This document shows, piece after piece, positions 15,978-41,124 of a stretch of DNA of 64,000 nucleotides. The notes beneath the pieces are model-generated. The model worked only from the letters and a program-made list of their open reading frames with translations. It searched no databases and had not been told where the DNA came from. Source of the stretch: Planctomycetota bacterium. GTDB taxonomy: Bacteria > Planctomycetota > UBA1135 > UBA2386. Both the position numbers and the translations under genes were made by a program. The stretch spans positions 32,001 through 96,000 of the forward strand of contig CANMWZ010000005.1 in assembly GCA_947501605.1 (NCBI GenBank), written 5' to 3'. The first letter of the stretch is position 1. Each line of letters begins with the position of its first letter.

Positions 15978-17092
15978 TGTTGTTCGCGGCGATCGGAGAA
16001 GCTGACGTGGCACCGTGGATCGTGTTCGCGGTCTCGGTGTCGATGTTGTTCGCCTCGACGGTGGAACAGCACGCGCGCTACACGCTGCTGCCGATGGTCT
16101 TGGTGGCGGCGCTGCTCGCGGTCGGGGTGTCGGCCGCCGACGGGATGCTCGGCTATGCCACGCTCGGGCTGGTGGCATTCGTGCACGCCGCGACCGCGGT
16201 GCGGCACAGTCGCATCGGTGCGATCTCGCTGGTGTTGGCCGGGATCTCGACCGCGGTGGCGGCGATGGCAGTCGGCAGCGATCACGTCGTCCTCGCGTTC
16301 TGGGCGTCGCTGGTCGCGATCGCGCTTCGCGCCGGCGTGATGCCGCTGCACTTCGGCGTCGTGCACCTCGGCGACAAGGTCGCGGCGCTGCAGGCGCAGC
16401 AGTTCGCCTCGACGCTGGCGCTGGTGTTCTTGCACTTGCGGTTCGTCGACCATCACCCTACGGCCTACGAGTTGGCGCCGATCCTGGTTCGCATCGGCGC
16501 GGTGGCGACGCTGTTGCCAGCACTCGCGGCCTTGGTCCAACGCGATCTGCGCGGGCTCTACCGCTGCACCGTCGCCATGCACGGCGGCATGCTGCTGGCC
16601 GCAGTCGGCGCGGCGGGCCACGGCCACTACGCCGCGGCGTTGCTGGTCTCGGTGACGACCTGCCTCGGCGTCTGCGGGTTTGGTCTGATGGTCAGCGCGC
16701 TCGAGCAGCGCGCCGGGCGCGTGTCGCTCGAAGGACTCGGCGGGCGCTTCCGCGCCTTCCCGCGCCTCGGCGCTGCGTTCGCGTTCTTCGGCGCTTGCGG
16801 CGTCGGCATGCCAGGCACGGCCGGCTTCATCGCCGACGACCTGTTCTTGCACGCCCTGTGGGAAGAGAGCGTGCTCGGCACGGTGCTGGTCGTCCTCGGC
16901 AGCGCGCTGCTCGCGGTGGCGACGATCCGCGGCTACACGCGGGTCTTCCTCGGGCCGCCGTGCGCGTCGCCCGCGCCCGACTTGCTGCTCGGCGAACGGT
17001 TGGTCGCCGCCCTGCTGGCGATCTTGTTGGTCCTGCTCGGTGTCGTGCCCAACTTGATCCTCGGCCCGGCTGCGGCCCTGCTCGGTTCCTGA
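15977..17092 (+). CDS. Short NuoM/ND4-like proton-conducting membrane subunit
   Basis: Motifs LRAGVMPLH and GMPGTAGFIADDL; many TM segments; TGATG coupling. Confidence 0.8.
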   Translation: MLFAAIGEADVAPWIVFAVSVSMLFASTVEQHARYTLLPMVLVAALLAVGVSAADGMLGYATLGLVAFVHAATAVRHSRIGAISLVLAGISTAVAAMAVGSDHVVLAFWASLVAIALRAGVMPLHFGVVHLGDKVAALQAQQFASTLALVFLHLRFVDHHPTAYELAPILVRIGAVATLLPALAALVQRDLRGLYRCTVAMHGGMLLAAVGAAGHGHYAAALLVSVTTCLGVCGFGLMVSALEQRAGRVSLEGLGGRFRAFPRLGAAFAFFGACGVGMPGTAGFIADDLFLHALWEESVLGTVLVVLGSALLAVATIRGYTRVFLGPPCASPAPDLLLGERLVAALLAILLVLLGVVPNLILGPAAALLGS

Positions 17093-19490: not shown

Positions 19491-22400
19491 TTACATGTTG
19501 CGCCGATACTGCCCGCCGACGTCGTACAGCGCCGCCGACATCTGACCGAGCGAGCACACCTTCGCCGCGGTCATCAGCTCCGCGAACACGTTCTTCCCGG
19601 CCAACGCATGTTGCTGCAGAGCCACGAGCGCCGCACTGGCTTCGGCCTCATGCCGCGCCTGGAAGGCCGCCAAGTCGTCGATCTGCGCCTTCTTCTCGTC
19701 CTCGGTCGATCGCATGACCTCGTTGACGATGTGGATCGGCGAGCCAGAGCTCGACAAGAACGTGTTCACGCCGATGACCGGCAGTTCGCCGCTCGCCTTC
19801 TTCTGCTCGTAGTGCATCGACTCTTCTTGGATGCGCGAGCGTTGGTACATCGTCTCCATCGCGCCGAGCACGCCGCCGCGTTCGCTGATGCGCAGGAACT
19901 CGGCGTACACTGCTTCTTCGACCAGGTCGGTCAGCTCTTCGATGACGAAGCTGCCTTGCAGCGGGTTCTCGTTGCGCGCGAGGCCGAGCTCCTTGTTGAT
20001 GATCAACTGGATCGCCATCGCGCGCCGCACCGAGTTCTCGGTCGGCGTCGTGATCGCCTCGTCGTAGGCGTTGGTGTGCAGCGAGTTGCAGTTGTCGTAG
20101 ATCGCGTAGAGCGCCTGCAGCGTCGTCCGGATGTCGTTGAAGTCGATCTCCTGCGCGTGCAGGGAGCGGCCCGACGTCTGGATGTGGTACTTCAGCATCT
20201 GGCTGCGCTCGTTGGCGCCGTACTTGCGCTTCATCGCGCAGGCCCAGATGCGGCGTGCGACGCGCCCGATGACCGAGTACTCCGGGTCGATGCCGTTGCT
20301 GAAGAAGAAGCTCAGGTTGGGCGCGAAGTCATCGATCGCGAGGCCCCGACTCAGGTAGTACTCGACGAACGTGAAGCCGTTGCTCAGCGTGAAGGCGAGC
20401 TGCGTGATCGGGTTCGCACCGGCCTCGGCGATGTGGTAGCCGCTGATCGAGACCGAATAGAAGTTGCGCACCTTGTTGGCGGTGAAGAACTCCTGCACGT
20501 CGCCCATCATGCGCAGGGCGAACTCGGTGCCGAAGATGCAGGTGTTCTGCGCCTGGTCTTCCTTCAGGATGTCGGCCTGCACCGTGCCGCGCACCGTTTG
20601 CAGGGTGTCTTGCGCGATCTTGTCGTAGACAGCTTTCGGGAGCACCTCGTCGCCGGTGACGCCCAAGAGCAGGGTGCCGAGTCCGTCGTTGCCGGTCGGC
20701 AGTTCAAAGCGGTAGCGCGGGCGCGGAAGCGCGCGGAACTTGGCGTCGATCTTGGCCTCGACTTCGGCGCGCAGACCGTGCGCCTCGATGTACCGCTCGC
20801 AGCGCTGATCGATCGCCGCGTTGAGGAAGAACGCGAGCAGCATCGGCGCCGGGCCGTTGATCGTCATCGACACCGACGTCACCGGGTCGCAGAGATCAAA
20901 CCCCGAGTAGAGCCGCTTGGCGTCGTCGAGCGTGCAGATCGACACGCCGGCGTTGCCGATCTTGCCGCGGATGTCCGGGCGCAGTGCTGGGTCTTCGCCG
21001 TAGAGCGTGACCGAGTCGAAGGCCGTCGACAGCCGCTTGTAGGGCTGCCCGTAGGACAGGTAGTGGAAGCGGCGGTTGGTGCGCTCCGGGCCGCCTTCGC
21101 CGGCAAACATGCGCGTCGGGTCTTCGGACACGCGCTTGAACGGATAGACGCCGGCGGTGAACGGGAAGCGGCCCGGTACGTTTTCGATCAGCAGCCAGCG
21201 CAGGCGGTCGCCGTGGCTGCGGTAGCGCGGCAGTGCGACCTTGGGGATGCGGAGGCCGGACAGCGAGGTGGTGTGGTTTGGCACCCGCACTTCGTTGCCG
21301 CGCACCGAGAACACGGTTTCGTCGGCGGCGTAGCTCTTGGCCATGCCGTCGTAGGCGGCGAGCAGTTTCTGGCACTCGACGTCGAGCAGGACGAGTTGCT
21401 GCGAGAAGGCCGCATCGAGTTCGGCTCGCGCTGCGGTTGCCGTTGCCGGCAGCATCGCCGCGGCGGCGCGCAGTTGGTGAACGCGTTCGGCCGTGTCGGC
21501 CTGAGTCTCGGCCCAGGATCGATAGGCGCGGTTTTGCTCGACGATCTCGGCGAGGTAGCGCGTGCGTTCTGCGGGCACGATGCTCGACATGGTCGGCTCG
21601 CCGATGGTGAGCGGCAAAGTGCTTTGCCACGCGCCCGGGCGGATGCGATCGAGCGCGCCGCAAAGCTGCTTGTAGAGCCTGCTCGTGCCCGGATCGGCAA
21701 ACGTCGACGCCATCGTGCCGTAGACCGGCATCGATTCGACCGGCTGGTCGAACGCCTTCTTGTTGCGTTGGTAGGCCTTGCGCACTTCGCGCAGTGCGTC
21801 CCTCGCCCCACGGCGGTCAAACTTGTTGATCGCGACCAGGTCGGCGAAGTCGAGCATGTCGATCTTCTCGAGCTGGCTCTGGGCGCCGAACTCCGGCGTC
21901 ATCACGTAGAGCGACAGGTCGGCGTGCTCGGTGATCTCGGTGTCCGACTGACCGATGCCCGAGCTTTCGAGCACGATCAAGTCAAAGTCCGCGCAGCGCA
22001 ACACGTCGAGGCCATCCTGCACCGAGTCCGACAAGGCGACGTTGGCGCGCCGGGTCGCCATCGAGCGCAAGTAGCAGCGGTCGGAGCGGATCGCATTCAT
22101 GCGAATGCGATCGCCAAGCAGCGCGCCGCCACTGCGTCGCCGCGTCGGGTCGACGCAGAGCACGCCGATGCGCATCTTCGGGAAGTCGAGCAGGAAGCGG
22201 CGCAGGAGTTCGTCGATCAGCGAGCTCTTGCCGGCGCCGCCGGTGCCAGTGATCCCGAGCACTGGGGCCACCCGTGCCAGCTTCGCGCGCCGGGCCTTTA
22301 GCTCTGGTCGATAGCGTTCTCCGTCATGCTCGACCAAGGTGATCGCGCGTGCGATCGCCGCTTGGTTCAGACTGTCGAGCTGCGGCAGTTGCGCATCGGG

Positions 22401-22904
22401 CGCGGCGACGGCGAAGTCGCAGTGCGACAACATGTCATCGACCATGCCCTGCAGCCCAAGCGTGCGGCCGTCGTCGGGCGAGTAGATGCGGGTGACGCCG
22501 TAGGCCTGCAGTTCGGCAATCTCCGCCGGCAGGATCACGCCGCCGCCGCCGCCGAACAGTTGCACGTGTTGGGCAGAGCGCGCGTCCAGCATGTCGCGCA
22601 TGTAGCGGAAGAACTCGTTGTGTCCGCCCTGGTAGGACGTGACTGCGATGCCCTGCGCATCTTCCTGGATGGCCGCGTCGACGATCTCTTGCACCGAACG
22701 GTTGTGACCGAGATGGATCACTTCCGCGCCAGACTGCTGCGCGATGCGGCGGAAGATGTGGATCGAGGCGTCGTGGCCGTCGAACAGCGCCGTCGCGGTG
22801 ATCAGCCGAATCTTGTTGTGAGCCTGAAATGGGCTCGCAGGGATCGGCGTTCCCGACGCAGCGGCATTGGCCGCCGAAGAAGGGTCTTGGGTGCGCGTCG
22901 CCAT
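19491..22904 (-). CDS. icmF: Fused isobutyryl-CoA mutase/GTPase chaperone IcmF
   Basis: B12-binding N-terminus (LFDGHDA), MeaB-like GTPase ([13 protein letters not shown]) and mutase barrel with PTRMFAGEG (Phe specificity residue); ends GGQYRRNM. Confidence 0.95.
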
Positions 22905-23056
22905 GGATCGAGTGGGGAGGAGTTATACCGACGCGTGCGGGGCATCGCCCTGCGACTTGCCGCGCAGTTCGACGCGCCCGCTCTCTTGGTTGCGCACGCA
23001 GGCTCACGGTTGCGCTGCTCGGGCATGAGCTTGCGCTACGTGGGCCTGGGTTCGCG

Positions 23057-23482
23057 CTACTCGGCTGCGGGCTCTTCGACCTCGACGATCGAGAAGTGCT
23101 GGCTCACGATCTTCCAGTCGTTGCCCAGCCTACAGACCGAGAAGGTGCAGCGACCGCCTTGTTCGTGGCCGCGCCCCTCTGGGTCTATCTGCAGCAACTT
23201 CCAGCAGCCGGCGACTGTGGCGAACTGATCCTCGAACACCTGGATGTCGATGTCGCGCAGTTCGAGTTTCACCGACTCGAGGTAACGGAACTCCTGGTCC
23301 AGCACTTCCTCGAAAGCGCCCCAGCCGCGGTCGTGCCGGCCGGACGCATCCAAGTTCTGGAACCGCTTGTCGGTCCAGAAGTGTGAACGGTAGGTCTTCA
23401 GATCGCGGCTGTTGAACGCCTGCCGCATGCTGCGGAAGAAGTCCTCCAGTTCCTTCAAGCTCTCAACGCTCATGGGGACCAT
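23057..23482 (-). CDS. NTF2/SnoaL-like (DUF4440-type) protein
   Basis: AFNSRDL...WKIVSQHFS fold signature; alternative ATG at 23473. Confidence 0.75.
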   Translation of the reverse strand: MVPMSVESLKELEDFFRSMRQAFNSRDLKTYRSHFWTDKRFQNLDASGRHDRGWGAFEEVLDQEFRYLESVKLELRDIDIQVFEDQFATVAGCWKLLQIDPEGRGHEQGGRCTFSVCRLGNDWKIVSQHFSIVEVEEPAAE

Positions 23483-23548: not shown

Positions 23549-24922
23549 TCAGCGATGGATACGGCTGTAGAGCGGCTCGTTGGCTAGCTCGTAGACCACC
23601 CTGCCGTTCACGATCGCCACTTCGACGAAGGTCCTATAGTGCATGGGATCACCATCGAGAATCAAGATGTCGGCGTCCTTGCCTGCTTCGAGGGACCCAA
23701 TTCGGTGGTCGACCCCCAGGATCTTGGCCGCGTCCAGAGTCAGAGTCCGGAGCGCCTGGCTCGACGTCATGCCGCCGCGGACGGCGAAGGCCGCGTCGAC
23801 CGTGGGCGTATTCAAGTCCATTCCCAGAAGCCCGTTGGTGCCGACACCCGCGCCACCGAACATGCCGACCGGGCAGGTTACGGCGAGTGGGATACCCGCC
23901 TGATTGCACAGCGCGGCGGAGGCGAGGTTGGAGCCGGTGCGGTCGGGGTCGGCCGGATCCGCGGGTACGCGATCTCGCGGCGACAAGATCACCATCGAGT
24001 CGGTCGCGGCGATTTCGTCGGCGCAGAGCCACGCCGACAGCGGCTTGACCAGGACCACGCCGGTGCCGAGTTCGGCCGCGATCTGCATCGCACTGCGGAT
24101 GGCATCCAGGTCGGATCCAGCCCCGGTGCGACCGCCGCCGAACGGGTTGAAGCCGCCGCCACCGAGCTGGAGCCACAGCTTGGACTTGCCGCTCAGGATG
24201 TCGAGGATCTTCTCGGTGCCGGCCGGCGCCTTTGGCGGCTTGGCAGTCGGGTCCTCAGACTTCTTGGCCAAGAAGTCCTCCTGCGCCCGTCGGTGCTCCT
24301 TGGCTTGCTTGACCAAGTCGCGGAACTTCTCACGCTCGCCGGCCGGAAGCTGCGCGTTCATGCCGAGGACGGTGCCTTCTTGCAGCACCATGTCCTCGAC
24401 CTTGCCCCAGGCGAGTTTGACCACGGCGGCATCGCCGGCGGGGGAATTGCCGCCGCGGGGGGCGCCGGCGAGGAACGACGTCACGCCCGCAGCCAGGCCC
24501 TGCTTGATCTCCGGATCGAACGGGTTGCAGCTGTCGATCCAAGGCGTGCCCCGTCCTTGGCCCATGCCGGCGCCGTAGACACAAACGAAGCCGGGGCAGA
24601 CCGTCTTGCCCTTGGCGTCGATCACGGTCGTGCCTTCTGGCAGCTCGATCTTGTGCCCGACCGCCAGGATCTTGTCGTCGCCGATGAGCACGGTGGCGCC
24701 AGTAATGCGTTGTCCGGTGCCGAGGTAGACATCGCCGCCGGTGATCGCGGTGTGCTTCTTGGGCTTGCCGTCGGTGGCCTGTGGGGCCGCCGGTTGCTCC
24801 GCGGCGGGCGAGCCACCGCCTTCGCCCTGGCCGCCGCGATTGAACCGGCCGCGGCGCTGCGCCGTGAGGTCTGGGCTCAACAGCAGCAGGGCAACGAGAC
24901 TGGCGAGGATCGGGAGTCGCAT
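23549..24922 (-). CDS. Secreted amidohydrolase-family protein A8 (metal ligands absent)
   Basis: IDAKGKTVCPGFVCVYG (no HxH); GSLEAGKDADILILDGDP; signal peptide. Confidence 0.85.
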   Translation of the reverse strand: MRLPILASLVALLLLSPDLTAQRRGRFNRGGQGEGGGSPAAEQPAAPQATDGKPKKHTAITGGDVYLGTGQRITGATVLIGDDKILAVGHKIELPEGTTVIDAKGKTVCPGFVCVYGAGMGQGRGTPWIDSCNPFDPEIKQGLAAGVTSFLAGAPRGGNSPAGDAAVVKLAWGKVEDMVLQEGTVLGMNAQLPAGEREKFRDLVKQAKEHRRAQEDFLAKKSEDPTAKPPKAPAGTEKILDILSGKSKLWLQLGGGGFNPFGGGRTGAGSDLDAIRSAMQIAAELGTGVVLVKPLSAWLCADEIAATDSMVILSPRDRVPADPADPDRTGSNLASAALCNQAGIPLAVTCPVGMFGGAGVGTNGLLGMDLNTPTVDAAFAVRGGMTSSQALRTLTLDAAKILGVDHRIGSLEAGKDADILILDGDPMHYRTFVEVAIVNGRVVYELANEPLYSRIHR

Positions 24923-24933
24923 GGTCGTAGTCC

Positions 24934-26454
24934 TCAGCGGGCCTGGGTGTCGGATTCGATCTTGCGGCCTTCGAGCCACACCGATCGGAGTTCGCTAGTG
25001 GGGTCGAGCGGATCGCTCGAGAACAGCAGTAGGTTGGCCTTCTTGCCGGCCTCGAGCGTGCCGCATTGGCTCTCGAGTCCGAGTGCCTTGCTCGGCACCA
25101 GGGTCACACCGCGCAGCGCGACGTCGCGCGGCAGTCCGGCGCGCACTTGTTCCATCAGGCGGAAGAACAACGTGCGCACGCGCGCCGGGCTGTCGCCGAG
25201 GACGAAGCCGACTTCGATGCCGGCGTCGTGGAGCGACCGCACCGGGTTCACCACGTAGCGACTGCGTGGGCGGACGCTGAGGTCGGGTGGGACGAGCACG
25301 GCTGCCTTCATCGCCTTCAGTTCGTCGATCACGAGGTCGAATGCGCCAGCCTGCGTGTCGAACGACTCCGTGCAGATCGTGCGCGAGAACGTGAGGTCCT
25401 TGCCACCAGCATGGAGCCAGTGCAGCAGGTCCGCCGCCGAGTTGAGCTGCACGATCGCCTTGTGCTTGCCTTCGATCAGGTCCGCGAGCACCTCGATGTT
25501 GGGGTCCTTCTTGTCTTCTGGCTTTGGCCCCTGCGCCTTGTCCGCTGTCGGTGCGCCCTCGGGCTTCTTGTCGTCGGCCTTCGGCGGCTCTTGCGGCTTG
25601 GGTTGCTCTGGCTTTGGTTGCTCTGGCTTGGGCTGGTCGGGCTTTGGCGGCTCCGGCTTCGGTGGCTCCGGTGGCGGCTGCGGATCGCTGGGCTTCGGCG
25701 CTTCGGCGGGTTTCGCCTCGCCACCTGGTTTGCTGCCGTCGGCGGCTTTGGCTTCCGGCTTCGGCGCTTCCTTCGGTGCCTTGCGCGCTGCCACCGCCTT
25801 GTTGGCCGCTTCGAACCCGTCCTTCAGGGCCTTCTTGACGCGCGCGTCCCGTTGCATGCCGAGGAACACGAACGCGTCGTCGTCGACGACCAGCGCCTCG
25901 AGCGTGGTGCCATCGGGCTTGAGCACCGCGCCAAACCCGGGGAACCCATCGCCTGGTGGTGTCAGCGCCAGCGTGGTGATGCCGGCGCGCAGCAGTTCGC
26001 CGAACACCTCTTGCTTGGGGTCGAGTCGCTCGGCGACCTTGGTTGCGGCGCTGTTTTGCACGCCGCGGGCGCCGCTGTCCGGCGGTGGCGTGCCTTGACC
26101 TCGGCGACCACCTCGACGCGGACCGGCCTCGACCGAAAACGTCGGCGGCGGCGAGACCAAACCGGCGCGGGAGTGCGCGCTGACGAGGCCTGGCATCAGC
26201 GTGCCGCCCTCGCAGTCAACGATGCGCGCGCCGGCGGGCGCGGCAACGTCGGCGCCGACGGCGACGATCTTGCCGTTGCGTACGACGAGCGTGCCGCGCT
26301 CGATGGGGGCGCCGCTGATCGTCAGGATGCGCGCGTTGGTGAACGCGATCGGTCGCACGTCCTGCGCGCGAAGTCCCGCGGCGCATAGGCCGAGCGCCAG
26401 CACAGCCGCGCGCAACGCGAAGCAACGGTTCCGTCGAGGGTTCGTTCGGAGCAT
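24934..26454 (-). CDS. Secreted amidohydrolase-family protein A7 (degenerate site; Pro/Lys/Glu-rich insert)
   Basis: MPGLVSAHSR; GTLEAGKKANLLLFSSDP; signal peptide. Confidence 0.85.
   Translation of the reverse strand: MLRTNPRRNRCFALRAAVLALGLCAAGLRAQDVRPIAFTNARILTISGAPIERGTLVVRNGKIVAVGADVAAPAGARIVDCEGGTLMPGLVSAHSRAGLVSPPPTFSVEAGPRRGGRRGQGTPPPDSGARGVQNSAATKVAERLDPKQEVFGELLRAGITTLALTPPGDGFPGFGAVLKPDGTTLEALVVDDDAFVFLGMQRDARVKKALKDGFEAANKAVAARKAPKEAPKPEAKAADGSKPGGEAKPAEAPKPSDPQPPPEPPKPEPPKPDQPKPEQPKPEQPKPQEPPKADDKKPEGAPTADKAQGPKPEDKKDPNIEVLADLIEGKHKAIVQLNSAADLLHWLHAGGKDLTFSRTICTESFDTQAGAFDLVIDELKAMKAAVLVPPDLSVRPRSRYVVNPVRSLHDAGIEVGFVLGDSPARVRTLFFRLMEQVRAGLPRDVALRGVTLVPSKALGLESQCGTLEAGKKANLLLFSSDPLDPTSELRSVWLEGRKIESDTQAR
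25595..25685 (-). repeat. Imperfect 15-bp coding tandem repeat (about 6 units, PKPEQ/PKPEP)
   Basis: ggcttgggttgctct / ggctttggttgctct-type units on the + strand. Confidence 0.8.
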
Positions 26455-26459
26455 CAGGA

Positions 26460-27884
26460 TCACCAAGCGGGGCGAGCGGGGTTGCGGCGATAGCAGATCG
26501 TGCCGTTCACGACGAACAGCTTGACGTGACTGCGCGGGTCGAGCGGATCGCCGCTCCACACGCCGAGGTCGGCGTCCTTGCCGACATCGAGGGAACCAAC
26601 GCGATGATCGATGCCGAGAAAGCGCGCGTTGTTGATCGTGAGGGCGCGCAGGCCGACTTCGTGCGGCAGTCCTAGTCGAACCCCCATGGCGGCCTGCAGC
26701 GTGAGCTGTTCTTGCGGCACGACCGGCGAATCGGTGTTGACGCCGATGCCGTCGCGGCCGACGCCTTTCACTTGGTCGCGCCAGCCGTCTTCGCCGTCCC
26801 AATACCAGTCGGCCATCAGGCCGCTGATCTCGTTGTAGCGCGTGTCGAAATGGTAGACGCGCGGGCCAGCGGCGATCGGCAGACCCGCTTCACGCATCTC
26901 CTGGCGCATGCGAAAGGCGTCGAATTCGCCGTGCACCACGACGGTCCAAAGACCGAGCTCGAGGCGCAGTTCCTGCAGCGTCTGCAACACGACCTGGTAG
27001 ATCTGCGTGTGCACCGACAGAGGGAACTCGTGCAGGTAGAGGCCGCGCAGCAGTTCGAGTGTCGGGTCGAACTTCGGCTTCTCGCCCTTGCCCTGCTGGA
27101 ACGCCAGGTAGGCATCGTGGTAGCGCTTGCCGTCGAGCAGCGTCGAACGGATGCCGTCGCTCATGCCCATCATGCCGGCGCCGAGGTCGCCCGAAGCGCG
27201 CTCGGGGTTTCCTGCCTGGGCGATCTTCAAGCTGCCGGGAAAGCGCACCAGCGCCTCGTCCGGGCTCCTGCCCCAAGTCTTCGTCAGGGTGCCGAAGCCG
27301 CCCATGTTCGAACCCGAGCCCGGGATGTAGAGCGCGGTCGAGACGCCGCCCGCGCGGGCCATCTGCATCTGGTCGTGTTCCAGCGTGATCAGGTCGAGGG
27401 TCCGGAACTCGGGGTTGGTCGGATGGACAGTGTCGTTGAGATCAAAGCTGGCGCTGGCGATGTGGCAGTGCGGTTCGATGAACCCAGGCACGAGCCACGC
27501 ATCGCCGCAGTCGACGACTTCGTAGCCGTCGGGCACGGCGATGTCTTTGGCGCGCCCGATCGCTTCGATCACTCCGTTCCTGGTGACCACGACGCCGTTC
27601 TCGATCGGCGGCGCGGTGATGGGCAGCACCTTCTCGGCGAAAAACACGTAGCCCGGGCTCGGTAGGCCCCGTGGGCCCCATTTCGCCACCTGATGCTCGG
27701 CCTCGGTCGCGGGGCGGTTGGGATGCCAGACATCGAGCGAGTTGCCGGTGTCCTTTGGGATCGAGCCCTTGGGAATCGGGTCGCGGCGTTCGGTCGAAGG
27801 CGTCTGTGCCCGCAGCGAGCTGATGGTCAAGGCCGCGATTGCGAACGTGAGGACGACGGCGGATCGGTAGGTCGGACGAGTCAC
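26460..27884 (-). CDS. Secreted amidohydrolase-family protein A6 (complete binuclear metal site)
   Basis: PGFIEPHCH (HxH), SLKIA (Lys), SVHTQ (His), VVHGE (His), VNTDSPV (Asp), GSLDVGKDADL; GTG start overlaps the upstream TGA. Confidence 0.9.
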   Translation of the reverse strand: MTRPTYRSAVVLTFAIAALTISSLRAQTPSTERRDPIPKGSIPKDTGNSLDVWHPNRPATEAEHQVAKWGPRGLPSPGYVFFAEKVLPITAPPIENGVVVTRNGVIEAIGRAKDIAVPDGYEVVDCGDAWLVPGFIEPHCHIASASFDLNDTVHPTNPEFRTLDLITLEHDQMQMARAGGVSTALYIPGSGSNMGGFGTLTKTWGRSPDEALVRFPGSLKIAQAGNPERASGDLGAGMMGMSDGIRSTLLDGKRYHDAYLAFQQGKGEKPKFDPTLELLRGLYLHEFPLSVHTQIYQVVLQTLQELRLELGLWTVVVHGEFDAFRMRQEMREAGLPIAAGPRVYHFDTRYNEISGLMADWYWDGEDGWRDQVKGVGRDGIGVNTDSPVVPQEQLTLQAAMGVRLGLPHEVGLRALTINNARFLGIDHRVGSLDVGKDADLGVWSGDPLDPRSHVKLFVVNGTICYRRNPARPAW

Positions 27885-30694
27885 TTTTGTACCTCGCGGT
27901 TGTCGACGGCGATCGCGCCGTTGCAGGCGACCAGCAGCACGCGGCTGCCGGGTTCGAACGGGTCTCCCGAGAACACGACGAAGTCCGCGTCGCGACCGCG
28001 CTGCAGCGAGCCGATGCGGTCGTCGAGTTGGAAGGCGCGCGCGGCATTGCTGGTGATCGCAGCGAGCGCTTGGTCTGGTGCCATGCCGTAGCGCACGGCG
28101 TAGGCCGCGTGCAGTGGCAAGAACCGCGCGCCGGCGCAGTCGCCAGTGCCGAACACGACCGGCAGGTCGAGGTCGCAGAATCGGGCGGCGGCATTCACGA
28201 GCTTGGCACCGTCCTCGCGAACCACTTCGGGTTCGAGCAGGACGGGTGGGCGGCTCTGACCCAACATGCTGCTGTCGTCGAGCAGGGCGTCGGCGCCGTG
28301 CAGCACGAACGGGAGCTTCTCGGCCGTCAACAGCGCGACGACGGCGCGGAGCGCGGCGAGGCGCTGCACGCGCACGACGAGCGCGGCGTGACCGCCGACG
28401 ACGGCGCGCATGGGTTCTTGGTTCTGGTCGACGTCCGGCTTCTTCGGTGCATCGCTGGGCTCGTCGTCGGCGAGCGCGGACGACGGCTTGCTGGTGCTGC
28501 CGCCAGTGGTCTTCGACACGCGCTTGGCTGTGAGTGGCTGGTCGCCCATGGGGCCGAGCGACAGGGTGCCGTCGAACGCATCGTCCTTGATGGTGCCTTC
28601 GATCGAGGCCGAGCCGCCCATGCCGCGGAACTCGAGCTTGAGCTTCGCTCCGTCGTAGGAGCCGGTCTCGATGCTCTGCTCCGGCAGTTCGCGTTCGCCG
28701 ATCGACATGCGGATCTTGCCGGTGACCTTCTCGCCTTGCAGTTCGAGGTCGAGCAGCACCTTGATCTGGAACCGGCCCTGAAGATCCAGCATCGCCTCCC
28801 AGGTGCCGGTGACGGGGTCCGGTTTGGCCTCCGCCTTCGGCTCGGGCGTCGGCGGCGGCGGCGCCGCTGGCTTCTTGCCCGACTTGTAATCGGCCATCGC
28901 CAGCTCCCAATCGGTCCAGGTCTTGGCGTATGCGCGCGCCCGGTCGATGGCTTCCTTCAGCGGTTTCTCGCTGTCGGGGCCGATCGCATCGAAGACCATG
29001 CGCTGCGCACAGATTGCGCGCACGAGCATGGCGTCGTGGTCGCGAGCGCCGGTCTTCACCGCCGTCACGCGCCCACTCATGAGCCCACCGTCCTTGCCCG
29101 AAGCGAGTACCGTGGTCACCCCTTGTTCGAGCGCCGCTTCGAACATCGGGTCGTCGAACGCGATCACCGTGTCGAGCGGCTGGCCGCTTGCACCGACGGG
29201 CACGCCGCTGCCTTCGCCGGCGAGACCGAGGTGGCTGTAGGCATCGACAAAGCCAGGCGTCATCACGGCGGTGGGCAGATCGACAATGCGGGCGCCGTAG
29301 GGGATCGACAGTTGTTCGCCGACGGCTTTGACGCGGCCGTTCTGCACCAGCAGCACGCCATCGCGAAACACCTTGCCGGTGCCGTCGAGGATCTTGCCGC
29401 AGCGGATCGCCAGCAGTTGGTCCTCCGTCGGCCGCTGGAAGGCGCGGTGGCCGTCGATCCAGGTGCTCTCGACCATCGTGCCGATGGCCAGCGGATCGCC
29501 ACTCAGCACGACGAAGTCGGCGTCCTTACCGGGCGCCAGCGTGCCGACGCGGTCTTGCACGCCGAGGATCGCGCTGGCATCGGCGCCAACTGCGCGCAGT
29601 GCGGCGGTAGCGGGCAGGCCGTTGCGGACCGCGAGGCCGACGGCGAGTAAGTAGTCGCGCAGCGGCGTGCCGGGCGCCGGTGCTAGGCCGACGGCCAGTC
29701 CGGCTGCGGCGGCGCGCGCGGGCGCATCGAAGTGCGCTTCGGGCAACTTCTGCGCGCGGTCTTCGCCGCCGGGATTGCTGCGGCCAAGCTGAACGGGCAG
29801 GCGAAAGACGGCGGCGAGACCCTGCTGCTTGCAGAGATCGGCGAGCGGCGCGATCTCCATCGGGTTCTCGAGCACCATCGGCATGCCGAACTCGCGCTGC
29901 AAGGTCAGGGCCCGGCGGATGTCGGCTGCGCGCCACGCCGCGGCGCGCACCGGCAGCCTGCCGGCGGCGGCCTGCGCCAGCGCCGTGCTGTCGTACTGGT
30001 TCTGAGCCGCCCCTTGCCCCTGAAGTCCGGTGGCGGTCTTCGCTTCGCGCAGCAGCGCGCGCAACTCGGCGAGCACCGCGATACGCGCAGTGGGCGTTTG
30101 GATGCGCGCGGGCAGCAGCGGGTCTTCGTCAGTCGGGTGGACCGTCGGCTCGAAGACGCGAGGCGCGTTGGTGCCGCCGTCGTCGAAGTTGAGGCGCAGG
30201 GACGCGTTCTCGCTCAGCACGCGCTGCACGAGATCGCGGCCCGCCGTCTTGACCACCGCGCCTTGGCCGGAGCACAGGCGTTGACGACCCGGCGAGAGAT
30301 AGACGGTAGTGACGCCACCCTCGAGTGCCGAGCGCAGTGGGTATTCGAAGTCGAAGCCGTCGATCGCGAGCACGTCGGGCGTGACGGCATACTCGTCGTC
30401 GCGTTCGGCGCCGAGATCGCTGTCGACCGCCACCAAGCCGGGCATCACAACCCGCCCGCTGGCGTCGACGATCGGCAGGTCGGTCGGTGCCGCGGTCTCG
30501 ATCGCCGCGATCTTGCCATTGCGCACGACCAGCCACGCATCGGCGACCGGCGGACTGCCATCGCCGCGGAGCAAGGTGCCGCAGCGCACCGCGAAGTCAC
30601 CGCTCGGCGGCGCCGGCGTCGCGGCATCCTGGGCGACGCTGGTTGGCGAGCAGAGTGCGAGCGCCGCGGTGAAGCGAAGCCACGTGCGCGACAT
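27881..30694 (-). CDS. Secreted tandem two-domain amidohydrolase-family protein A5 (both sites degenerate)
   Basis: Domain 1: MPGLVAVDSD...GTLAPGKDADFVVLSGDP. Domain 2: TPGFVDAYSH...GSLQRGRDADFVVFSGDP. Confidence 0.87.
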   Translation of the reverse strand: MSRTWLRFTAALALCSPTSVAQDAATPAPPSGDFAVRCGTLLRGDGSPPVADAWLVVRNGKIAAIETAAPTDLPIVDASGRVVMPGLVAVDSDLGAERDDEYAVTPDVLAIDGFDFEYPLRSALEGGVTTVYLSPGRQRLCSGQGAVVKTAGRDLVQRVLSENASLRLNFDDGGTNAPRVFEPTVHPTDEDPLLPARIQTPTARIAVLAELRALLREAKTATGLQGQGAAQNQYDSTALAQAAAGRLPVRAAAWRAADIRRALTLQREFGMPMVLENPMEIAPLADLCKQQGLAAVFRLPVQLGRSNPGGEDRAQKLPEAHFDAPARAAAAGLAVGLAPAPGTPLRDYLLAVGLAVRNGLPATAALRAVGADASAILGVQDRVGTLAPGKDADFVVLSGDPLAIGTMVESTWIDGHRAFQRPTEDQLLAIRCGKILDGTGKVFRDGVLLVQNGRVKAVGEQLSIPYGARIVDLPTAVMTPGFVDAYSHLGLAGEGSGVPVGASGQPLDTVIAFDDPMFEAALEQGVTTVLASGKDGGLMSGRVTAVKTGARDHDAMLVRAICAQRMVFDAIGPDSEKPLKEAIDRARAYAKTWTDWELAMADYKSGKKPAAPPPPTPEPKAEAKPDPVTGTWEAMLDLQGRFQIKVLLDLELQGEKVTGKIRMSIGERELPEQSIETGSYDGAKLKLEFRGMGGSASIEGTIKDDAFDGTLSLGPMGDQPLTAKRVSKTTGGSTSKPSSALADDEPSDAPKKPDVDQNQEPMRAVVGGHAALVVRVQRLAALRAVVALLTAEKLPFVLHGADALLDDSSMLGQSRPPVLLEPEVVREDGAKLVNAAARFCDLDLPVVFGTGDCAGARFLPLHAAYAVRYGMAPDQALAAITSNAARAFQLDDRIGSLQRGRDADFVVFSGDPFEPGSRVLLVACNGAIAVDNREVQK

Positions 30695-30696
30695 GT

Positions 30697-31992
30697 TCAC
30701 TTGCTCCCCGAGGCAGCCGCGCCGGTGCTCGATGTGTCGAGCAGATACTTCAGCCGTTGGTCCTTGCTGCGCTCGTAGACCAGTTGGCCTTCGAGGACGA
30801 CGGTCTCGACCCAAGTGGTCGCCTGCATCGGGTCACCGGTCACGATCTGCAGGTTGCCGAGCTTGCCGACTTCGAGCGTCGCGAGCTGGTCCTGCAGGCC
30901 GAGCAACTCGGCCGGCACGGTGGTGAGCGCAGCGTAGGCTGTGCTGGCGTCGATGCCTTGGCGCACGCAGGCAGCGAGCTGCCACCAGGGATACGAAGTC
31001 GGGCCGCTCTGCCCGAGGCTCAATGCGAACGGGATGCCGGCATCGGCCAACAGCTTGGCGACGCGGATCTTGGTCTCCTTGCGCGTCTCGGGGTCGGTCT
31101 CGAAGAACTCCAGCGTCTCGTCGAGCACAACGGGGTGTTTGGCGGCCTTCAGGAGGTCTACGGCGCGGTGCACTTGCGGCCCCAGCACTAGGACCAGATC
31201 GAGTTCTGTCTGCAGGCGCATGGCCTCCGGCACTTCGGCCGAGCCGGGCACATAGAGCCAACCGCGGGTCTTCTTCTGCAGCAGATCGAGCACCGGCTTC
31301 TTGGTGCGATCCCACTCTTCGGTCCACTTCTTGTCCTTGTCGATCGCACCCGACTTCTGCTCCTGTTCGAACTCGGCCTTGCGGCGGTCGAAGTCGGCGA
31401 GGTACTCGCGCGCGTCTTCGAGGGCTCGGCGCAGTTTGCGAATCTGCAGCAAGCGACCACCGCCCTGCGGTTGCAACGACAGCTTGAGCCCACTCTGGGT
31501 GCTGACGGCCATATCCTCGACCGTTCGGCCGAACGGGCGAACGACGATGCCCGAGCCGCCGAGCAGCGTCATGTTGCCGGGGATGGAATGCACGGTGCCA
31601 ATGCCCGAACGCAAGCAGTCCTCGAAGAAGGGGCTCGCCGGATCGAGTGCGTCGGAGATCTTGACGAACGCGACGTTTTCCATGCGCTCGTTGGCGCCGC
31701 GGGCACCGCCTTGGCTGTGCGCGAGGACCCAAGTTGGCAGCACGACTTTGCCGGTCGCGTCGAGGACCTTCGCTTCCCACGGCACTTCGATGTCGGCCAC
31801 GGGTCCGATCTTGGTGATGCGCCCATTCTCGATCAGCACGGTGGCGTTCTCGAGCACGGGCCCGTGCATCGTGTGCACTCGCCCGCCCTTGACCGCGATC
31901 AGGTCCTGCGCGCGCGCAGGAGCCGCGGCCAGCGCGGCGAACAGGAACGCGGACAGCGCGGTCGTTGCGACCGTTCGGCGAGTGGAGTTCAT
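30697..31992 (-). CDS. Secreted amidohydrolase-family protein A4 (degenerate site)
   Basis: LDATGKVVLPTWVLAHSQ; TLEVGKLGNLQIVTGDP; signal peptide. Confidence 0.85.
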   Translation of the reverse strand: MNSTRRTVATTALSAFLFAALAAAPARAQDLIAVKGGRVHTMHGPVLENATVLIENGRITKIGPVADIEVPWEAKVLDATGKVVLPTWVLAHSQGGARGANERMENVAFVKISDALDPASPFFEDCLRSGIGTVHSIPGNMTLLGGSGIVVRPFGRTVEDMAVSTQSGLKLSLQPQGGGRLLQIRKLRRALEDAREYLADFDRRKAEFEQEQKSGAIDKDKKWTEEWDRTKKPVLDLLQKKTRGWLYVPGSAEVPEAMRLQTELDLVLVLGPQVHRAVDLLKAAKHPVVLDETLEFFETDPETRKETKIRVAKLLADAGIPFALSLGQSGPTSYPWWQLAACVRQGIDASTAYAALTTVPAELLGLQDQLATLEVGKLGNLQIVTGDPMQATTWVETVVLEGQLVYERSKDQRLKYLLDTSSTGAAASGSK

Positions 31993-33224
31993 TGCTTGGA
32001 GGTCGTGTCGTTGCCGTTGATGACGACGGTCGTAGGAGTCGAGGCCGGATCGAATGGGTCGGTGGACCAGACGACGAAGTCTGCGTCCATGCCGGCCTCG
32101 AGGCGGCCCTTGCGCTCAGCGAGGCCGAGTAGCTTGGCCGGTTGCGAGGTGACTGCCGCGAGCGCTTGTTGGCGTCCGAGGCCGAAGCGGTGGGCGAACA
32201 TTGCTTCGCGCACGAGTTCGGTGGCGTTGGTGTTGCTGCCGGTGGTGATGACGAACGGGATGCCTCGGTCCTGCAGGTGCTTCAGGGTCGCAAAGCGCGG
32301 TTCGGCGCCGTCCTGGCCAGCCGAGCCGCCGACCGCGCTGGCACTCGGGGCGCCGACCATGACCCACACGCGCGCTTTCTGCAGTTCGTCGAGGACGAGG
32401 TACGCGTCCTGGGCCTCGTCGATCACCGGCGTGTAGCCGAACTCATCGGCGAGTCGCAGCGCCGTGCGCAGGTCCTGCTCGCTGCGCGCCGTGGTCACCA
32501 GCGGCAGCGATCCCTGCAAGACGCGGGTGAGCACCGACAGGTCGCGCTGTTCTTGCGTCGTGCGCGTCGTCTTGGTGCCGCCCTGGGTCTCGGCGATCTG
32601 CTCCTTGGCGTCGAAGAACGCGCGCCGCGCCGACCAGATGACGCCCATGCGCGAAGTCGGGCGCCGGTAGTAGATGGAGTCGACGTTGCCGCCGCGGATC
32701 GCGCGATTGCCCATCGACGGCTCGGCGCCGAGGACCAGGCGCAACGAGGCCTCGTCGCGCAGGACCATCGCCGCTGGGTCGCTGGCCCAGGTCTGCAGCA
32801 CGACCGACAGGCCGCCCATCACGCTGCGGGTGCCCGGCATCAAGTGCACGGCAGTCACTCCAGAGTTGCGGGCGCGTGCGAGGGCAGGATTCTGCGGGTC
32901 GAGGCTGTCGAGCACGCGCAGCGCTGGCGTGATCTCCGTGCTCTGCTCGTTGCCGTCGGCTTCGGCCACGCTGCCATCCCAGGCGGCGTCGATCAGGCCC
33001 GGCGTGATCACGAGGCCGTTGCACTCGACGATGCGGGCGCCGTCCGGGATCGTCGTGCTGGCGCCGCCAACGGTCTGCACGCGGCCGTTCTGGATCACCA
33101 GGACTGCGTCGGTGATGGGCGCGCGGTCCCCGGGCCACACGGTCGCGCCGCGGTAGACGACGGGCAGGTCTTGCGCGAACGCCGACGCGGCGAACAGGGC
33201 AACGGTGGTCGCAACGCGCAGCAT
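31989..33224 (-). CDS. Secreted amidohydrolase-family protein A3 (metal ligands absent)
   Basis: TPGLIDAAWD; PTSRMG; GRLEAGMDADFVVWSTDP; signal peptide. Confidence 0.85.
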   Translation of the reverse strand: MLRVATTVALFAASAFAQDLPVVYRGATVWPGDRAPITDAVLVIQNGRVQTVGGASTTIPDGARIVECNGLVITPGLIDAAWDGSVAEADGNEQSTEITPALRVLDSLDPQNPALARARNSGVTAVHLMPGTRSVMGGLSVVLQTWASDPAAMVLRDEASLRLVLGAEPSMGNRAIRGGNVDSIYYRRPTSRMGVIWSARRAFFDAKEQIAETQGGTKTTRTTQEQRDLSVLTRVLQGSLPLVTTARSEQDLRTALRLADEFGYTPVIDEAQDAYLVLDELQKARVWVMVGAPSASAVGGSAGQDGAEPRFATLKHLQDRGIPFVITTGSNTNATELVREAMFAHRFGLGRQQALAAVTSQPAKLLGLAERKGRLEAGMDADFVVWSTDPFDPASTPTTVVINGNDTTSKQ

Positions 33225-34450
33225 CACAGCGTCTCCTTGCTCTTCGGCGCCGGTTCGTTGGGCTTGGTCGCGCAAGCGCCGGCGGCGCCGAACAGCAACT
33301 GGCCGTCGCCGTAGACGGCGAGCAAACGGGAACCAAGGTCGAGGGGATCGCCGTCGAAGACGACGAAGTCGGCATCGCAGCCGCGGCGCAGCGAGCCGTG
33401 CGTCGCCGCCACGCCGCACAGTTCCGCCGGTGTGCGGGCGAGCGCAGCCAGCGCCGTCTTCTTGCTGCAACCGTGTTGCACCGCGAGCGCCGCGCTGCTG
33501 CGCGTCAAGCGAGGCGAACCAGCAAAGCAGAACGCCACGCCCCTGGCTTCGAAGCGAGCGGGGAGAGTCAGCATCTCATCGCGCAGTTCGGGGCGCAGCG
33601 GCGGCAGGATCACTGCCGCGCGCGCGGCGACGATCTCTTGGATGCAGTCAGAGGCCTCGTTGGCCCCGGCGATCACCGGCTCGATGCCGAGTTCTTTGCA
33701 GAGCGCCAGCGCCGCGAGGATCTCGGCGCGGGTGTCGGCATGCACGACGGCGCGGCGTTCGCCGCGCGCAACGGCGGCGAGCGCAACGGCCTCGGGCCCA
33801 GTCAGCGTGCCACTCTTCGCTTCGCCAAACGCGTTGCGCAACAAGTCGACTGCGCCCATCAGCGAAGTCGGCTGCCGCTCGGGATTGCGCGACGCGGCGA
33901 TCAGCGAGAACTTGGCGTAGATCTGTTCCAGGCGCAGCGAGCCCATGGATTGCGAGTCCTTGCCGCCGACCCCGGGCTCGACCAGCGCGGCGATGCCGCC
34001 GGCGACGTTGGTCGACGAGGGCGCGAGCGCGCAGCTCGTGAACCCGTGTTCGGGCAGTTGCCGCAGCATGGCGCCGGCTGGGTCAAACGCGTCGGCGGCC
34101 AGTAGGTCTGGCGTCAGCGCTACGGCGCGCTCGGCGAGGTCTTGTTCTTGGCCCAGCGTGCTGTGCGCAAGCACGAAGCCCGGCACGATCGTGGCGCGAT
34201 CGAACGCGACGATGGTGGCGCGGGCGCGGGCTTCTGGCGGGATCTCGCTGCCGAGCTGCGCCACCTTGCCGTCGCGGACCAACATCTCACCCGGTGAGAT
34301 CACGGTGTCCGGTGCGATGACCAGCGTGGCGCAGCGGACCAGCAGTTCTGGTGGTTGCTGCGCTTGCAGGGAGGCCGTCGCCGCGAGGGCCAGGAATACG
34401 AACGGCAGCAGCGCGCGGCCATTCGCCAGTGAATCTCGGGACGTCTTCAT
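33224..34450 (-). CDS. Secreted amidohydrolase-family protein A2 (degenerate site)
   Basis: VPGFVLAHST; PTSLMG; GSLRRGCDADFVVFDGDP; signal peptide. Confidence 0.85.
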   Translation of the reverse strand: MKTSRDSLANGRALLPFVFLALAATASLQAQQPPELLVRCATLVIAPDTVISPGEMLVRDGKVAQLGSEIPPEARARATIVAFDRATIVPGFVLAHSTLGQEQDLAERAVALTPDLLAADAFDPAGAMLRQLPEHGFTSCALAPSSTNVAGGIAALVEPGVGGKDSQSMGSLRLEQIYAKFSLIAASRNPERQPTSLMGAVDLLRNAFGEAKSGTLTGPEAVALAAVARGERRAVVHADTRAEILAALALCKELGIEPVIAGANEASDCIQEIVAARAAVILPPLRPELRDEMLTLPARFEARGVAFCFAGSPRLTRSSAALAVQHGCSKKTALAALARTPAELCGVAATHGSLRRGCDADFVVFDGDPLDLGSRLLAVYGDGQLLFGAAGACATKPNEPAPKSKETL

Positions 34451-36342
34451 CGCGGCTCCTTGTTCGGCTGCGTCGATTCGTACTGCACCGCGCCGGCCGA
34501 CCACACCGCGAGCACGCGGCAGTCGCTCTGCAACAAGGGCCGGTCGCAGATCAACAAGTCCGCGAGCTTGCCCTGTTGCAGCGAGCCCACGTCCTTTTGC
34601 ACGCCGAGGATCTCGGCTGGCGTAAGCGTGATGGCGCGCAGTGCAGCGCTGGCATCGAGGCCGTTGCCGACCGCAGTCGCGGCCATCAGCGGCAGGGAGC
34701 TGGCGCGGCGGCCGCTGCCACTGGCGATTGCAAAGACGACGCCGGCGTCGTGGAGCGCCTTGGGCAGAGCATCCGGTGCGAACGCCGCGAACGGTTCCGG
34801 CAGTTCCGTGGCGAAGGTGCCGGTCAGCACGCAGGCGATCGAAGCCGCGGCGAGCTCCTTGCGGACGCTTGCCGCACCGATCATGTTCTCGAACACCAAC
34901 CCGGGCACCTTCTTCGTGCGCGCCACGGCGATGCAGGCGCGGACTTCGTCGGGGCGCACGAGGTGCACGCGCAAGGGCAACGTGCCATCGAGCACCTTGA
35001 GCAGGGTGTCCTTCACTGGGTCGCGTGGGTCGGCCTTCGGATACTTGGGCCGCTCGGGTGGCTTCTCGTCGCCCTTGGCGTCGGGTTTGGCGCCAGCGTT
35101 ATCGGGCTTGGCGCCGGTGGGGAGGCCCGCGGCCGGCTTTGGCTCCTGCGGCTTTGGCGCGTCGGGCTTTGGTTGGTCGGGCTTTGGCTCCTGCGGCTTT
35201 GGCTCGTCCGGTTTCGGCTGCTCTGGCTTCGGCTGCTCTGGTTTCGGTTCTGCTGGCTTCGGTTCCGCAGGCTTTGGTTGCTCTGGCGGTGGCGACTCGG
35301 GCTTGGGTTGGTCGGGCTTGGGCGAAGGTGCCGGCTCGTCGCCGCCGGGTCGGCCGCCGCGGCGGCCACCGCGGTTCCCGCGCTGCCCAGGACCACGTGG
35401 CGCCTCGCCGCCGCCTTCGGTCCCGTCCGGAACCTTGGCGTCGGGCTTCGGCGCGTCGTCCCCGCCTGCGGCCTTCGGCGTCTCGTTCTTCGCGGCGTCC
35501 GCCTGCGCGGGCTCGTCCTTCTTGTTCTTCTTCTCGTGCCAGGCGACGTAGTCGGCGAAGTCCTTGGTGTACTTCTCCAGCGCCTTCTGCTGCTCGTCGG
35601 CCTTCTTGCGATAGTCGTCGAGCCCTTGGAACGCACCGAAGGCGCCTTCGATCGCACGCTGGCGATCGAGTGGGTGGGTGCCGGTCGGCGGGGCCGCGAG
35701 CTGCAGGCCGACACCCGCTTGCTCTTTGCCCGGCATCACCGAGAACCCGTTCTGTTTCGGCCGCACGATGGCGCCGAGGCCGGACCACGGTGTGCCGCGG
35801 CTGTTGCTGACATAGGCCGTGGTGATGCCGCTCTGGACGATGCTGTCTTCGCGATCTTGGCGCCGGCCGAGGGCTTCGGCGATCGGTGTCGCGGCGTCGG
35901 CCGAGCTGTCGTTGCGCGCGGCGTCGTCAAGAAACGCGTCCGAGCTGGCGTCGACGAGGCCGGGGTAGATGTGGGCGCCATCGAAGCGCACGGTTTCGGC
36001 GCCCTCGGGGATCTCGACTTCGCCCTGCTTGCCGACGGCGACGATGCGATCGCCGCGCACCAACACGACGCCTTCTTCGATGTCGGAAGCCGCGACCGGG
36101 TGCACGTGACTCGCCAACACCGCGACCGTGCGGACCGGTCGGCGACCGCCGCGCCGGGCCGCGGGGATCGCGGCTGGTTCCGTCGCTGCGGGCACGACGT
36201 CGGCCGGAGCTACCGGTTGTTCCGCCGCAGGCGGTGCCGGCTCCTGCGGCTTGGTTGCATCGGGCTCCTGCGCCAGCAGCGCAGTGGTGCAGAGGGGCAG
36301 GAGCCAGGCGAACAGGACCGAGGACGTCAGGTTTGGCCGCAT
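34447..36342 (-). CDS. Secreted amidohydrolase-family protein A1 (HxH absent; long low-complexity insert)
   Basis: YPGLVDASSD; GSLQQGKLADLLICDRP; signal peptide MRPNL...ALLA-Q. Confidence 0.85.
   Translation of the reverse strand: MRPNLTSSVLFAWLLPLCTTALLAQEPDATKPQEPAPPAAEQPVAPADVVPAATEPAAIPAARRGGRRPVRTVAVLASHVHPVAASDIEEGVVLVRGDRIVAVGKQGEVEIPEGAETVRFDGAHIYPGLVDASSDAFLDDAARNDSSADAATPIAEALGRRQDREDSIVQSGITTAYVSNSRGTPWSGLGAIVRPKQNGFSVMPGKEQAGVGLQLAAPPTGTHPLDRQRAIEGAFGAFQGLDDYRKKADEQQKALEKYTKDFADYVAWHEKKNKKDEPAQADAAKNETPKAAGGDDAPKPDAKVPDGTEGGGEAPRGPGQRGNRGGRRGGRPGGDEPAPSPKPDQPKPESPPPEQPKPAEPKPAEPKPEQPKPEQPKPDEPKPQEPKPDQPKPDAPKPQEPKPAAGLPTGAKPDNAGAKPDAKGDEKPPERPKYPKADPRDPVKDTLLKVLDGTLPLRVHLVRPDEVRACIAVARTKKVPGLVFENMIGAASVRKELAAASIACVLTGTFATELPEPFAAFAPDALPKALHDAGVVFAIASGSGRRASSLPLMAATAVGNGLDASAALRAITLTPAEILGVQKDVGSLQQGKLADLLICDRPLLQSDCRVLAVWSAGAVQYESTQPNKEPR
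35135..35322 (-). repeat. Imperfect 15-bp coding tandem repeat (about 12 units, PKPxx pentapeptide)
   Basis: ggctttggctcctgc / ggtttcggctgctct / ggcttcggttccgca-type units on the + strand. Confidence 0.85.
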
Positions 36343-36542
36343 GCGTACTTGGGGCGAGGAGCGGGCGCAGCGAGGAGGGTGCGGTTCTACGGACTCCGGC
36401 GCGCTTTGCGTGAAGCCTTTTTTGTGCCGCGTCATCTCGCTGCCATGGCTCCTAGTTGGGGAGCCCGCGTCTGTCCAGTCCCGGCATCGAAGTGCCGAAT
36501 GCTCGCCGTTGTCCTGCGACTCGGCCGCTCTATGCTGCGATC

Positions 36543-36856: not shown

Positions 36857-37477
36857 TTGACCCAACCCAGCGAGCGGCGGCGTCCCGTCCGAGAAGGCCT
36901 CGGCTTCTTCGGTACCTTCCTTGGGCAACCTGGCTCGATCGGCGCGGTGCTTCCCAGTACGCGCTACCTCGCGCGCGCGTTGGTCGGACGGCTCGAACTG
37001 CAGTCCGACGAACTGGTCGTCGAGTTCGGACCGGGAACCGGTCCGATGACCGCGGTGATCCGCGAACTGCTGCCGCCGCGCGCCAAGTACGTCGGCATCG
37101 AGTTGGAAACGAAGTTCCACACCTTGCTGGTCAAGCGCTTCCCGACGATGACGTTCCATCTGGGCAGTGCCGGTGACTTGCCCGCGATCCTGCGCGAACA
37201 CGGCTTGCCCAAGGCCATGCGCATCATCTCAGGGCTGCCCTTCGCCAGCCTGCCGGCGAAGGTCCAGGACGCCGTCGTGAATGGAGTGGTGGAGTGTCTG
37301 CATCCGGCTGGCGACTTCCGCACGTTCCAGTACATGCACGCGTATGGCATGGCCAAGGCGCGCCGGTTCCGCTCGCTGATGGATGAGCGCTTTGCGAGCT
37401 TCGAGCGCATTGGGCCGATCCTGCGCAACATGCCGCCGGCCTACGTGCTGCGCTATTGGGCTCGGCGCGACGCCTGA
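36857..37477 (+). CDS. Phospholipid/ornithine-lipid N-methyltransferase (PmtA/OlsG-like)
   Basis: Motifs [34 protein letters not shown] and RNMPPA. Confidence 0.8.
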   Translation: MTQPSERRRPVREGLGFFGTFLGQPGSIGAVLPSTRYLARALVGRLELQSDELVVEFGPGTGPMTAVIRELLPPRAKYVGIELETKFHTLLVKRFPTMTFHLGSAGDLPAILREHGLPKAMRIISGLPFASLPAKVQDAVVNGVVECLHPAGDFRTFQYMHAYGMAKARRFRSLMDERFASFERIGPILRNMPPAYVLRYWARRDA

Positions 37478-37538
37478 CCCTGAACGCTCTGCCTGCCGTA
37501 GATGAGGGGCACAGCGTGGGGTCTCGGGGCGCGAGCCG

Positions 37539-38657: not shown

Positions 38658-38707
38658 GTACGTTGGTCGGCTAGGACGGGGGCGCGGCACGAGTCGGGCA
38701 CAACCTA

Positions 38708-39394: not shown

Positions 39395-39520
39395 CGAGCC
39401 CGCTTTGGAGGCCCATCAGCGGTAGCGCGTCGCAGAGACGCTGCGGCCCCGACTCGAGTGGTCGCCGAGGTTGCTGCGAAGGACCGTTGCCGCTGGCTCA
39501 GGACGCAACGTGCCCGTCGC

Positions 39521-41047: not shown

Positions 41048-41124
41048 GCTAGTCGCGCGCAGTTTCGCTGCAAACCCGCAAGGCCGGTTCCGAGGTGCTC
41101 AGCGTCAATTTCCCTTGATGCGGA

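Follow-up and report, generated by a model that had tools for sequence, protein, structure and literature searches.

In the eukaryotic proteasome, the exosome core, plastid ClpP/ClpR and the animal CRMP tetramers, a homo-oligomer has given way to a set of fixed paralogues, most of which are inactive; heteromers of this kind are considered a eukaryotic habit. A drift from homomer to heteromer has been modelled as a neutral route (PMC11066126). In bacteria, the inactive pseudo-dihydroorotase chain of Pseudomonas aspartate transcarbamoylase (pDHO, PyrC') is described as being required for both assembly and activity of the dodecamer (PMC7053772). The binuclear peptidases and aminoacylases of COG1228 are multimeric and hold their metals with four His residues, a single Asp and a carboxylated lysine; dead subunits are not mentioned in the accessible part of the account of these enzymes (PMC10781821). 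The solved structure closest to the locus reported here is that of the Thermotoga maritima MSB8 amidohydrolase, PDB entry 3OOQ, whose title assigns no function and which contains ten chains; a benchmark of assemblies of 10-30 chains lists the entry among its dihedral complexes (10.64898/2026.08.06.736029), and from the chain number and the dihedral listing together we infer a D5 decamer.

The window analysed here is a stretch of 64,000 nucleotides from a Planctomycetota bacterium, in which eight abutting genes on the minus strand (23549-36342) encode nine amidohydrolase domains, designated A1-A4, A5a, A5b and A6-A8. It is a bacterial operon with eight dead domains, that is, domains with an incomplete metal site, and one live one. 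All nine domains match Pfam Amidohydro_1/3, A6 scoring above the PF01979 cut-off, GC3 lies between 0.82 and 0.89 across the eight genes, and the intergenic spacing from A1 to A8 is -4, -1, -4, 2, -4, 5 and 11 bases. The genes A1 (34447..36342), A2 (33224..34450), A3 (31989..33224) and A4 (30697..31992) are followed by A5 (27881..30694), a single gene in which the N-terminal A5a (29426..30694) is joined to A5b (27881..29425) through a linker of about 7 residues, and then by A6 (26460..27884), which has a GTG start, A7 (24934..26454) and A8 (23549..24922), all on the minus strand. A1 (at 35131-35400) and A7 carry long Pro/Glu/Lys low-complexity inserts, which lie in the helical region of these domains and vary between relatives. 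The insert of A5b, at approximately 28514-28807, is predicted to be all-beta with eight strands and had no Pfam match; beta-rich stretches resembling it adjoin dead domains in two other loci (L083 and L020).

Each of the eight genes begins with a predicted Sec-type signal peptide, a call based on basic charge, on hydropathy and on the presence of an A-x-A-Q motif. When relatives were counted crudely, a signal-peptide-like start was seen in 76-92% of gene-initial domains against 51% (40/78) of internal A5b domains used as a control, a weak separation. No membrane helix was found in the eight proteins (maximal 19-residue hydropathy 1.68), and no lipobox was noticed at their N-termini. A promoter and terminator scan returned 0 promoters and 10 terminators, compared with 10.3 in shuffled sequence. 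Words of 26400-36350 were contained in six metatranscriptome runs (6 of 12 listed) from three freshwater studies, at shares of 0.91, 0.80, 0.55, 0.25, 0.21 and 0.20; these matches are consistent with expression, the source being contigs, in which DNA carry-over is possible.

An earlier note on this DNA had claimed that A6 is the only one of the nine domains to keep a full metal site, and all 13 of the motifs it quoted were found in their places. The claim was borne out in the window, where the A6 ligands H139 (27470), H141 (27464), K220 (27227), H292 (27011), H318 (26933) and D385 (26732) align onto identical residues of 3OOQ, and it extended to relatives; among 933 domains, the full set of six was present in 139 of 140 A6-type domains, the exception being a frameshifted copy, and in only 3 of the 793 others, every one of them at A2, with one more having five. 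Because of this disparity, the pattern of ligands cannot be put down to chance. None of the other eight sites is complete in the window, as the note had said, although they are not uniformly blank: A2 retains three of the six ligands (H, K, H), A4 two (H, K) and A5b one, whereas A1, A3, A5a, A7 and A8 retain none. In orthologues, zero ligands were counted in 76/92 of A1, 85/106 of A5a and 83/91 of A8, and A4 retains the first histidine in 88/107 and the lysine in 93/107. A2 is partly decayed; its 97 orthologues have all six ligands in 3 cases, three or more in 31 and none or one in 57. The A2 genes with five or six ligands belong to four genomes (L056, L068, L072 and L087) and suggest that A2 was once an active subunit beside A6, since lost from most lineages.

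Alternative ligands that might rebuild the lost sites, for which the note had proposed a check, were sought as conserved His, Cys, Asp or Glu within three residues of the six positions; no dead orthogroup had more than two, in a count that omits the structural Asp preceding the HxH, and no conserved replacement set emerged. Each dead group has invariant polar or aromatic residues of its own, which are sparse in A1 and A7 and numerous in A3, A4 and A8 (in the last, W298, R316, D369, Y429 and Y444). By fold and ligands, A6 is a predicted binuclear amidohydrolase, and the eight others share its fold and lack its ligand set. In these genomes, the annotation 'imidazolonepropionase-like amidohydrolase' falls, on this reckoning, mostly on genes whose products cannot be metal enzymes.

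Each dead position is an orthogroup of its own on which purifying selection acts. A tree built from 310 domains of 34 loci resolved the nine positions into nine groups, supported at 0.95-1.0 except for A1 (0.59); when a quicker alignment was used and outside relatives were included, A6, A4 and A5a remained whole and A1, A2, A5b and A7 were partly mixed. Pairwise dN/dS was below 1 in 43/43 comparisons drawn from five genome pairs, ranging from 0.08 to 0.62, so that neutral evolution of the degenerate paralogues, the outcome that would have counted against the earlier proposal of pseudoenzymes kept by selection, was not observed and the proposal itself is supported. Against a genome of the same genus, the dead domains gave 0.20-0.38 and A6 gave 0.17. 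A6 is also the most conserved position, with a mean identity of 0.54 compared with 0.37-0.48 elsewhere.

Loci with the order A1-A2-A3-A4-A5a+A5b-A6-A7-A8 numbered 107, distributed over 106 Planctomycetota genomes besides that of the window. These were obtained by cutting 112 loci around A6 or A4 matches and leaving out five (L139-L143), which had weak A4 scores and active+dead pairs and were rejected as examples of the operon. Of the 107, 83 are complete and the incomplete ones mostly stop at contig edges; by label the order is canonical in 104/107, and in the remaining three the first gene, or a fragment of it, is labelled weakly. A6 was matched in 40/41 related genomes and A4, at 1e-25, in 104/301 genomes of the phylum; the operon was verified in 81/301 of the latter, at least a quarter of the genomes sampled, and outside the order to which the window belongs its carriers come from no fewer than 21 families, while some well-sampled families gave no match (0/17, 0/11 genomes). 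The relatives that bear names are Planctomycetota metagenome-assembled genomes, and the three named clusters among 20 distant representatives looked up were likewise Planctomycetota. Outside the phylum, an A8 orthologue was found in 2/121 genomes of the phylum of a Chthonomonadales genome, one with the whole operon in order and the other with it across two contig ends. A spread to Pseudomonadota, indicated by a Luminiphilus-labelled record, was rejected, as the record groups with a Planctomycetota genome. The operon is split in two genomes (G169 and G184), each retaining both an A1-A5 and an A6-A8 block; in one genome A8, a partial match, is located elsewhere. One genome (G127; L082 and L111) carries two complete copies, in one of which A1 and A2 are fused.

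Within the operon, the eight dead positions are constant in number and A6 alone varies, from one copy to four: among the 83 complete loci, 55 have one, 24 have two, 3 have three and 1 has four, and two of the two-copy loci carry a frameshifted copy. Genuine short-linker fusions join dead neighbours only, namely A5a+A5b at 106/106 junctions, A1+A2 in eight loci, four of which also have A2+A3, and A7+A8 in a single locus; none includes A6. Since fusion is possible only between adjacent genes and the A1+A2+A3 cases all come from one family, the lack of fusions with A6 is weak evidence. Apparent fusions in L093, L123, L136 and L041 were rejected as artefacts of N-gaps or frameshifts. In five related genomes (L057-L061), stand-alone A6-like genes, with HxH and lysine present, lie outside the operon; they are possibly additional catalytic subunits for the scaffold proposed below, and their existence may mean that A6-type proteins work without the operon.

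To place these domains among known structures, models of A6 and of the A5 protein were compared with solved entries. The A6 model (pLDDT 90.5, pTM 0.89), with the TIM barrel and beta-sandwich of the amidohydrolase superfamily, superimposed on 3OOQ with a Z of 45.1 and an rmsd of 2.4 over 368 residues, and the two also align by sequence over the length of A6 (E 4.4e-45). The ligand-free A5a fitted 3OOQ just as closely (Z 44.9; 352 residues at an rmsd of 2.1), and for both models the best structure after 3OOQ reached a Z of only 24-26. In the A5 model both domains fold (pLDDT 87.1), with a pTM of 0.53 from 32 sequences, and their relative position is not fixed. On these models, A6 and A5a belong to the 3OOQ-like subfamily, with a Z of about 45 compared with at most 24-26 for other amidohydrolases. 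We take this subfamily to be CDD cd01309. 3OOQ shares subfamily, fold and six ligands with A6, but it is the product of one gene and consists of identical active chains, whereas the operon specifies nine diverged domains, one of them active, on chains that are all predicted to be exported. The COG1228 enzymes (Cc2672/3MTW, 3MKV, 3FEQ/3N2C, PmAcy and ADH3) have the ligand set of four His, Asp and Lys in common with A6, although they match it with a Z of about 22-24 and 16-19% identity.

Simpler arrangements occur in the wider subfamily, of which 150 representatives include 38 dead+active+dead proteins and 13 two-domain fusions of an active and a dead domain; in metagenome loci, lone active genes and active+dead pairs were seen. 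The window's own genome has a second, simpler set (G000:C26:19030-23363; L083:6998-11523, minus strand), which consists of a 1,000-residue dead+active fusion, with the six ligands in the second domain, and then a dead gene. A comparison of 20 sequences per group showed that A6 retains the catalytic set together with S190, A222 and N226 of the lone active genes, but has lost other features of them. Of 25 lone active genes, at least 85% have the P-x-T-R motif; it is retained in A3 (20/20; PTSRMG in the window), A5a (19/20) and A2 (18/20) and lost in A6, where the proline is found in 0/20; similarly, an H-R-x-D-D-I stretch after H292 is lost in A6 and partly retained by A3, A5a and A2. Residues lost from A6 and retained in these dead domains may mark interfaces between subunits.

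What A6 acts upon is approached here through its active site and its neighbours. The enzyme would cleave an amide bond, using D385 as the base and a carbamylated K220 as the bridge between two metals. Enzymes acting on N-acyl amino acids and dipeptides, the substrates which the earlier note had suggested, bind the substrate carboxylate with a Tyr two residues past the beta-5 His (PMC10781821, accessible part); in A6 the corresponding stretch is H292-T-Q294, with glutamine in place of the tyrosine, and the protein scored 58.6 bits against the Xaa-Pro dipeptidase model NF051886 (cut-off 500), so the suggestion found no support. A6 also fell short of the imidazolonepropionase model, with 41.3 bits against HutI TIGR01224 (cut-off 298). 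The flanking genes gave no clue to the substrate; none is conserved across the phylum, and beside the simpler relatives no neighbour recurs in more than 6 loci.

We consider it probable, with some reserve, that the eight genes specify one periplasmic hetero-oligomer of homo-oligomeric ancestry with A6 as its exchangeable catalytic part. The nine domains would assemble after the predicted Sec export, and the ancestor would have been a homo-oligomer like T. maritima 3OOQ. Every dead domain would occupy one fixed place in the particle, supplying interfaces that A6 has lost, and A6 would be the exchangeable part because it alone ranges from one to four copies. Arrangements from the lone gene through the active+dead pair and the dead+active+dead fusion to the nine-domain operon are all extant; with one-, two- and three-domain versions alongside the operon, the origin of heteromeric complexity, by drift or for function, becomes testable in one family. 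A more exact count, in which eight dead and two A6 subunits reproduce the ten-chain architecture of 3OOQ, is tentative; against it stand the nine kinds of domain and the single A6 gene in 55/83 complete operons. Equally doubtful is the fuller picture of a proteasome-style bacterial periplasmic particle, pseudo-D5, with ten subunits, eight different pseudoenzymes and two interchangeable catalytic slots, built by stepwise heteromerisation of which the arrangements just named would be the surviving intermediates.

The note's further claim, that the dead domains are partners of one catalytic subunit, fared unevenly: synteny, the fusions and the oligomeric homologue speak for a partnership with A6, in which physical contact is putative. 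Mutual-information co-variation across all 36 position pairs (82-106 loci each) set no pair apart from the rest, the top z being 5.5-7.5 throughout. The proposed role resembles that of pDHO, an inactive chain of amidohydrolase fold that serves a complex; pDHO, however, is a single dead type, cytoplasmic and in the service of an unrelated enzyme, whereas eight dead types would here serve their own paralogue. By analogy, the arrangement would be closer to the proteasome, exosome and plastid Clp rings, membership of that class hanging on assembly. Those systems are eukaryotic or organellar and, CRMP excepted, of other folds, whereas this one, a putative assembly, is bacterial, contained in one operon and predicted to be periplasmic.

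Other explanations share some of this evidence. The dead paralogues could be individual proteins for binding or sensing in the periplasm, or several small complexes, co-expressed with A6 and forming no single particle, a reading that we regard as rather improbable; the invariant residues proper to each dead group, the unfixed packing of the A5 domains and the stand-alone A6-like genes would all suit it, but no neighbour, be it a transporter, a receptor or another gene, is conserved outside single families, and independent binding proteins tend to expand or drop out, whereas eight positions here are constant and only A6 varies. We hold it unlikely that several dead domains, A2 and A4 first, are one-metal or metal-free enzymes in a multi-step pathway: the histidine and lysine kept by most A4 genes and the occasional well-stocked A2 point in that direction, but in none of the dead groups is a replacement ligand set conserved, retention in A2 is patchy, as expected with ongoing loss, and A1, A5a and A8 are for the most part free of ligands.

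More unlikely again is a mainly structural assembly of the envelope, such as a lattice, filament or cage, with A6 activity secondary. The 8:1 excess of non-catalytic domains, the signal-peptide-like N-termini of eight genes, the Pro/Glu/Lys inserts of A1 and A7 and the extra beta domain of A5b could all be accommodated by it; the absence of a noticed lipobox and of a membrane helix speaks against it, as does the behaviour of A6, which is both the most conserved position and the one that diversifies in copy. That the eight domains are functionless, decaying duplicates has almost no chance of being correct: catalytic residues have been lost and a few frameshifts occur in metagenome-assembled loci, but the idea is refuted by dN/dS below 1 in every comparison and by the same gene order across the families sampled, and the modelled folds are predicted to be intact. 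The single hetero-oligomer is the reading we prefer. A search of the literature, from which subscription papers were largely out of reach, found no description of the operon, which is real and conserved and, as far as searched, undescribed; PMC13081988 was rejected as such a description, the part of it available dealing with another subfamily.

The surroundings of the operon in the window are varied. On the minus strand, 66 bases downstream of A8, lies a SnoaL/NTF2-like gene (23057..23482), which follows A8 in 22/107 loci; it is not a core part, because only close relatives have it there. Together with a fusion of B12-binding, MeaB and mutase domains (IcmF-like), which follows the operon in 18 loci, again of close relatives only, it occupies 19491-23482. 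Upstream of the operon, 36857-43401 holds genes for a PmtA/OlsG-like lipid methyltransferase, a CehA/McbA-like metallohydrolase, a PagL-like barrel, a PMT_2 glycosyltransferase and AceK. At 10229-17092 lies a DAB-type locus for inorganic carbon uptake, with genes for a SulP permease, for DabA and for two NuoL-like membrane proteins.
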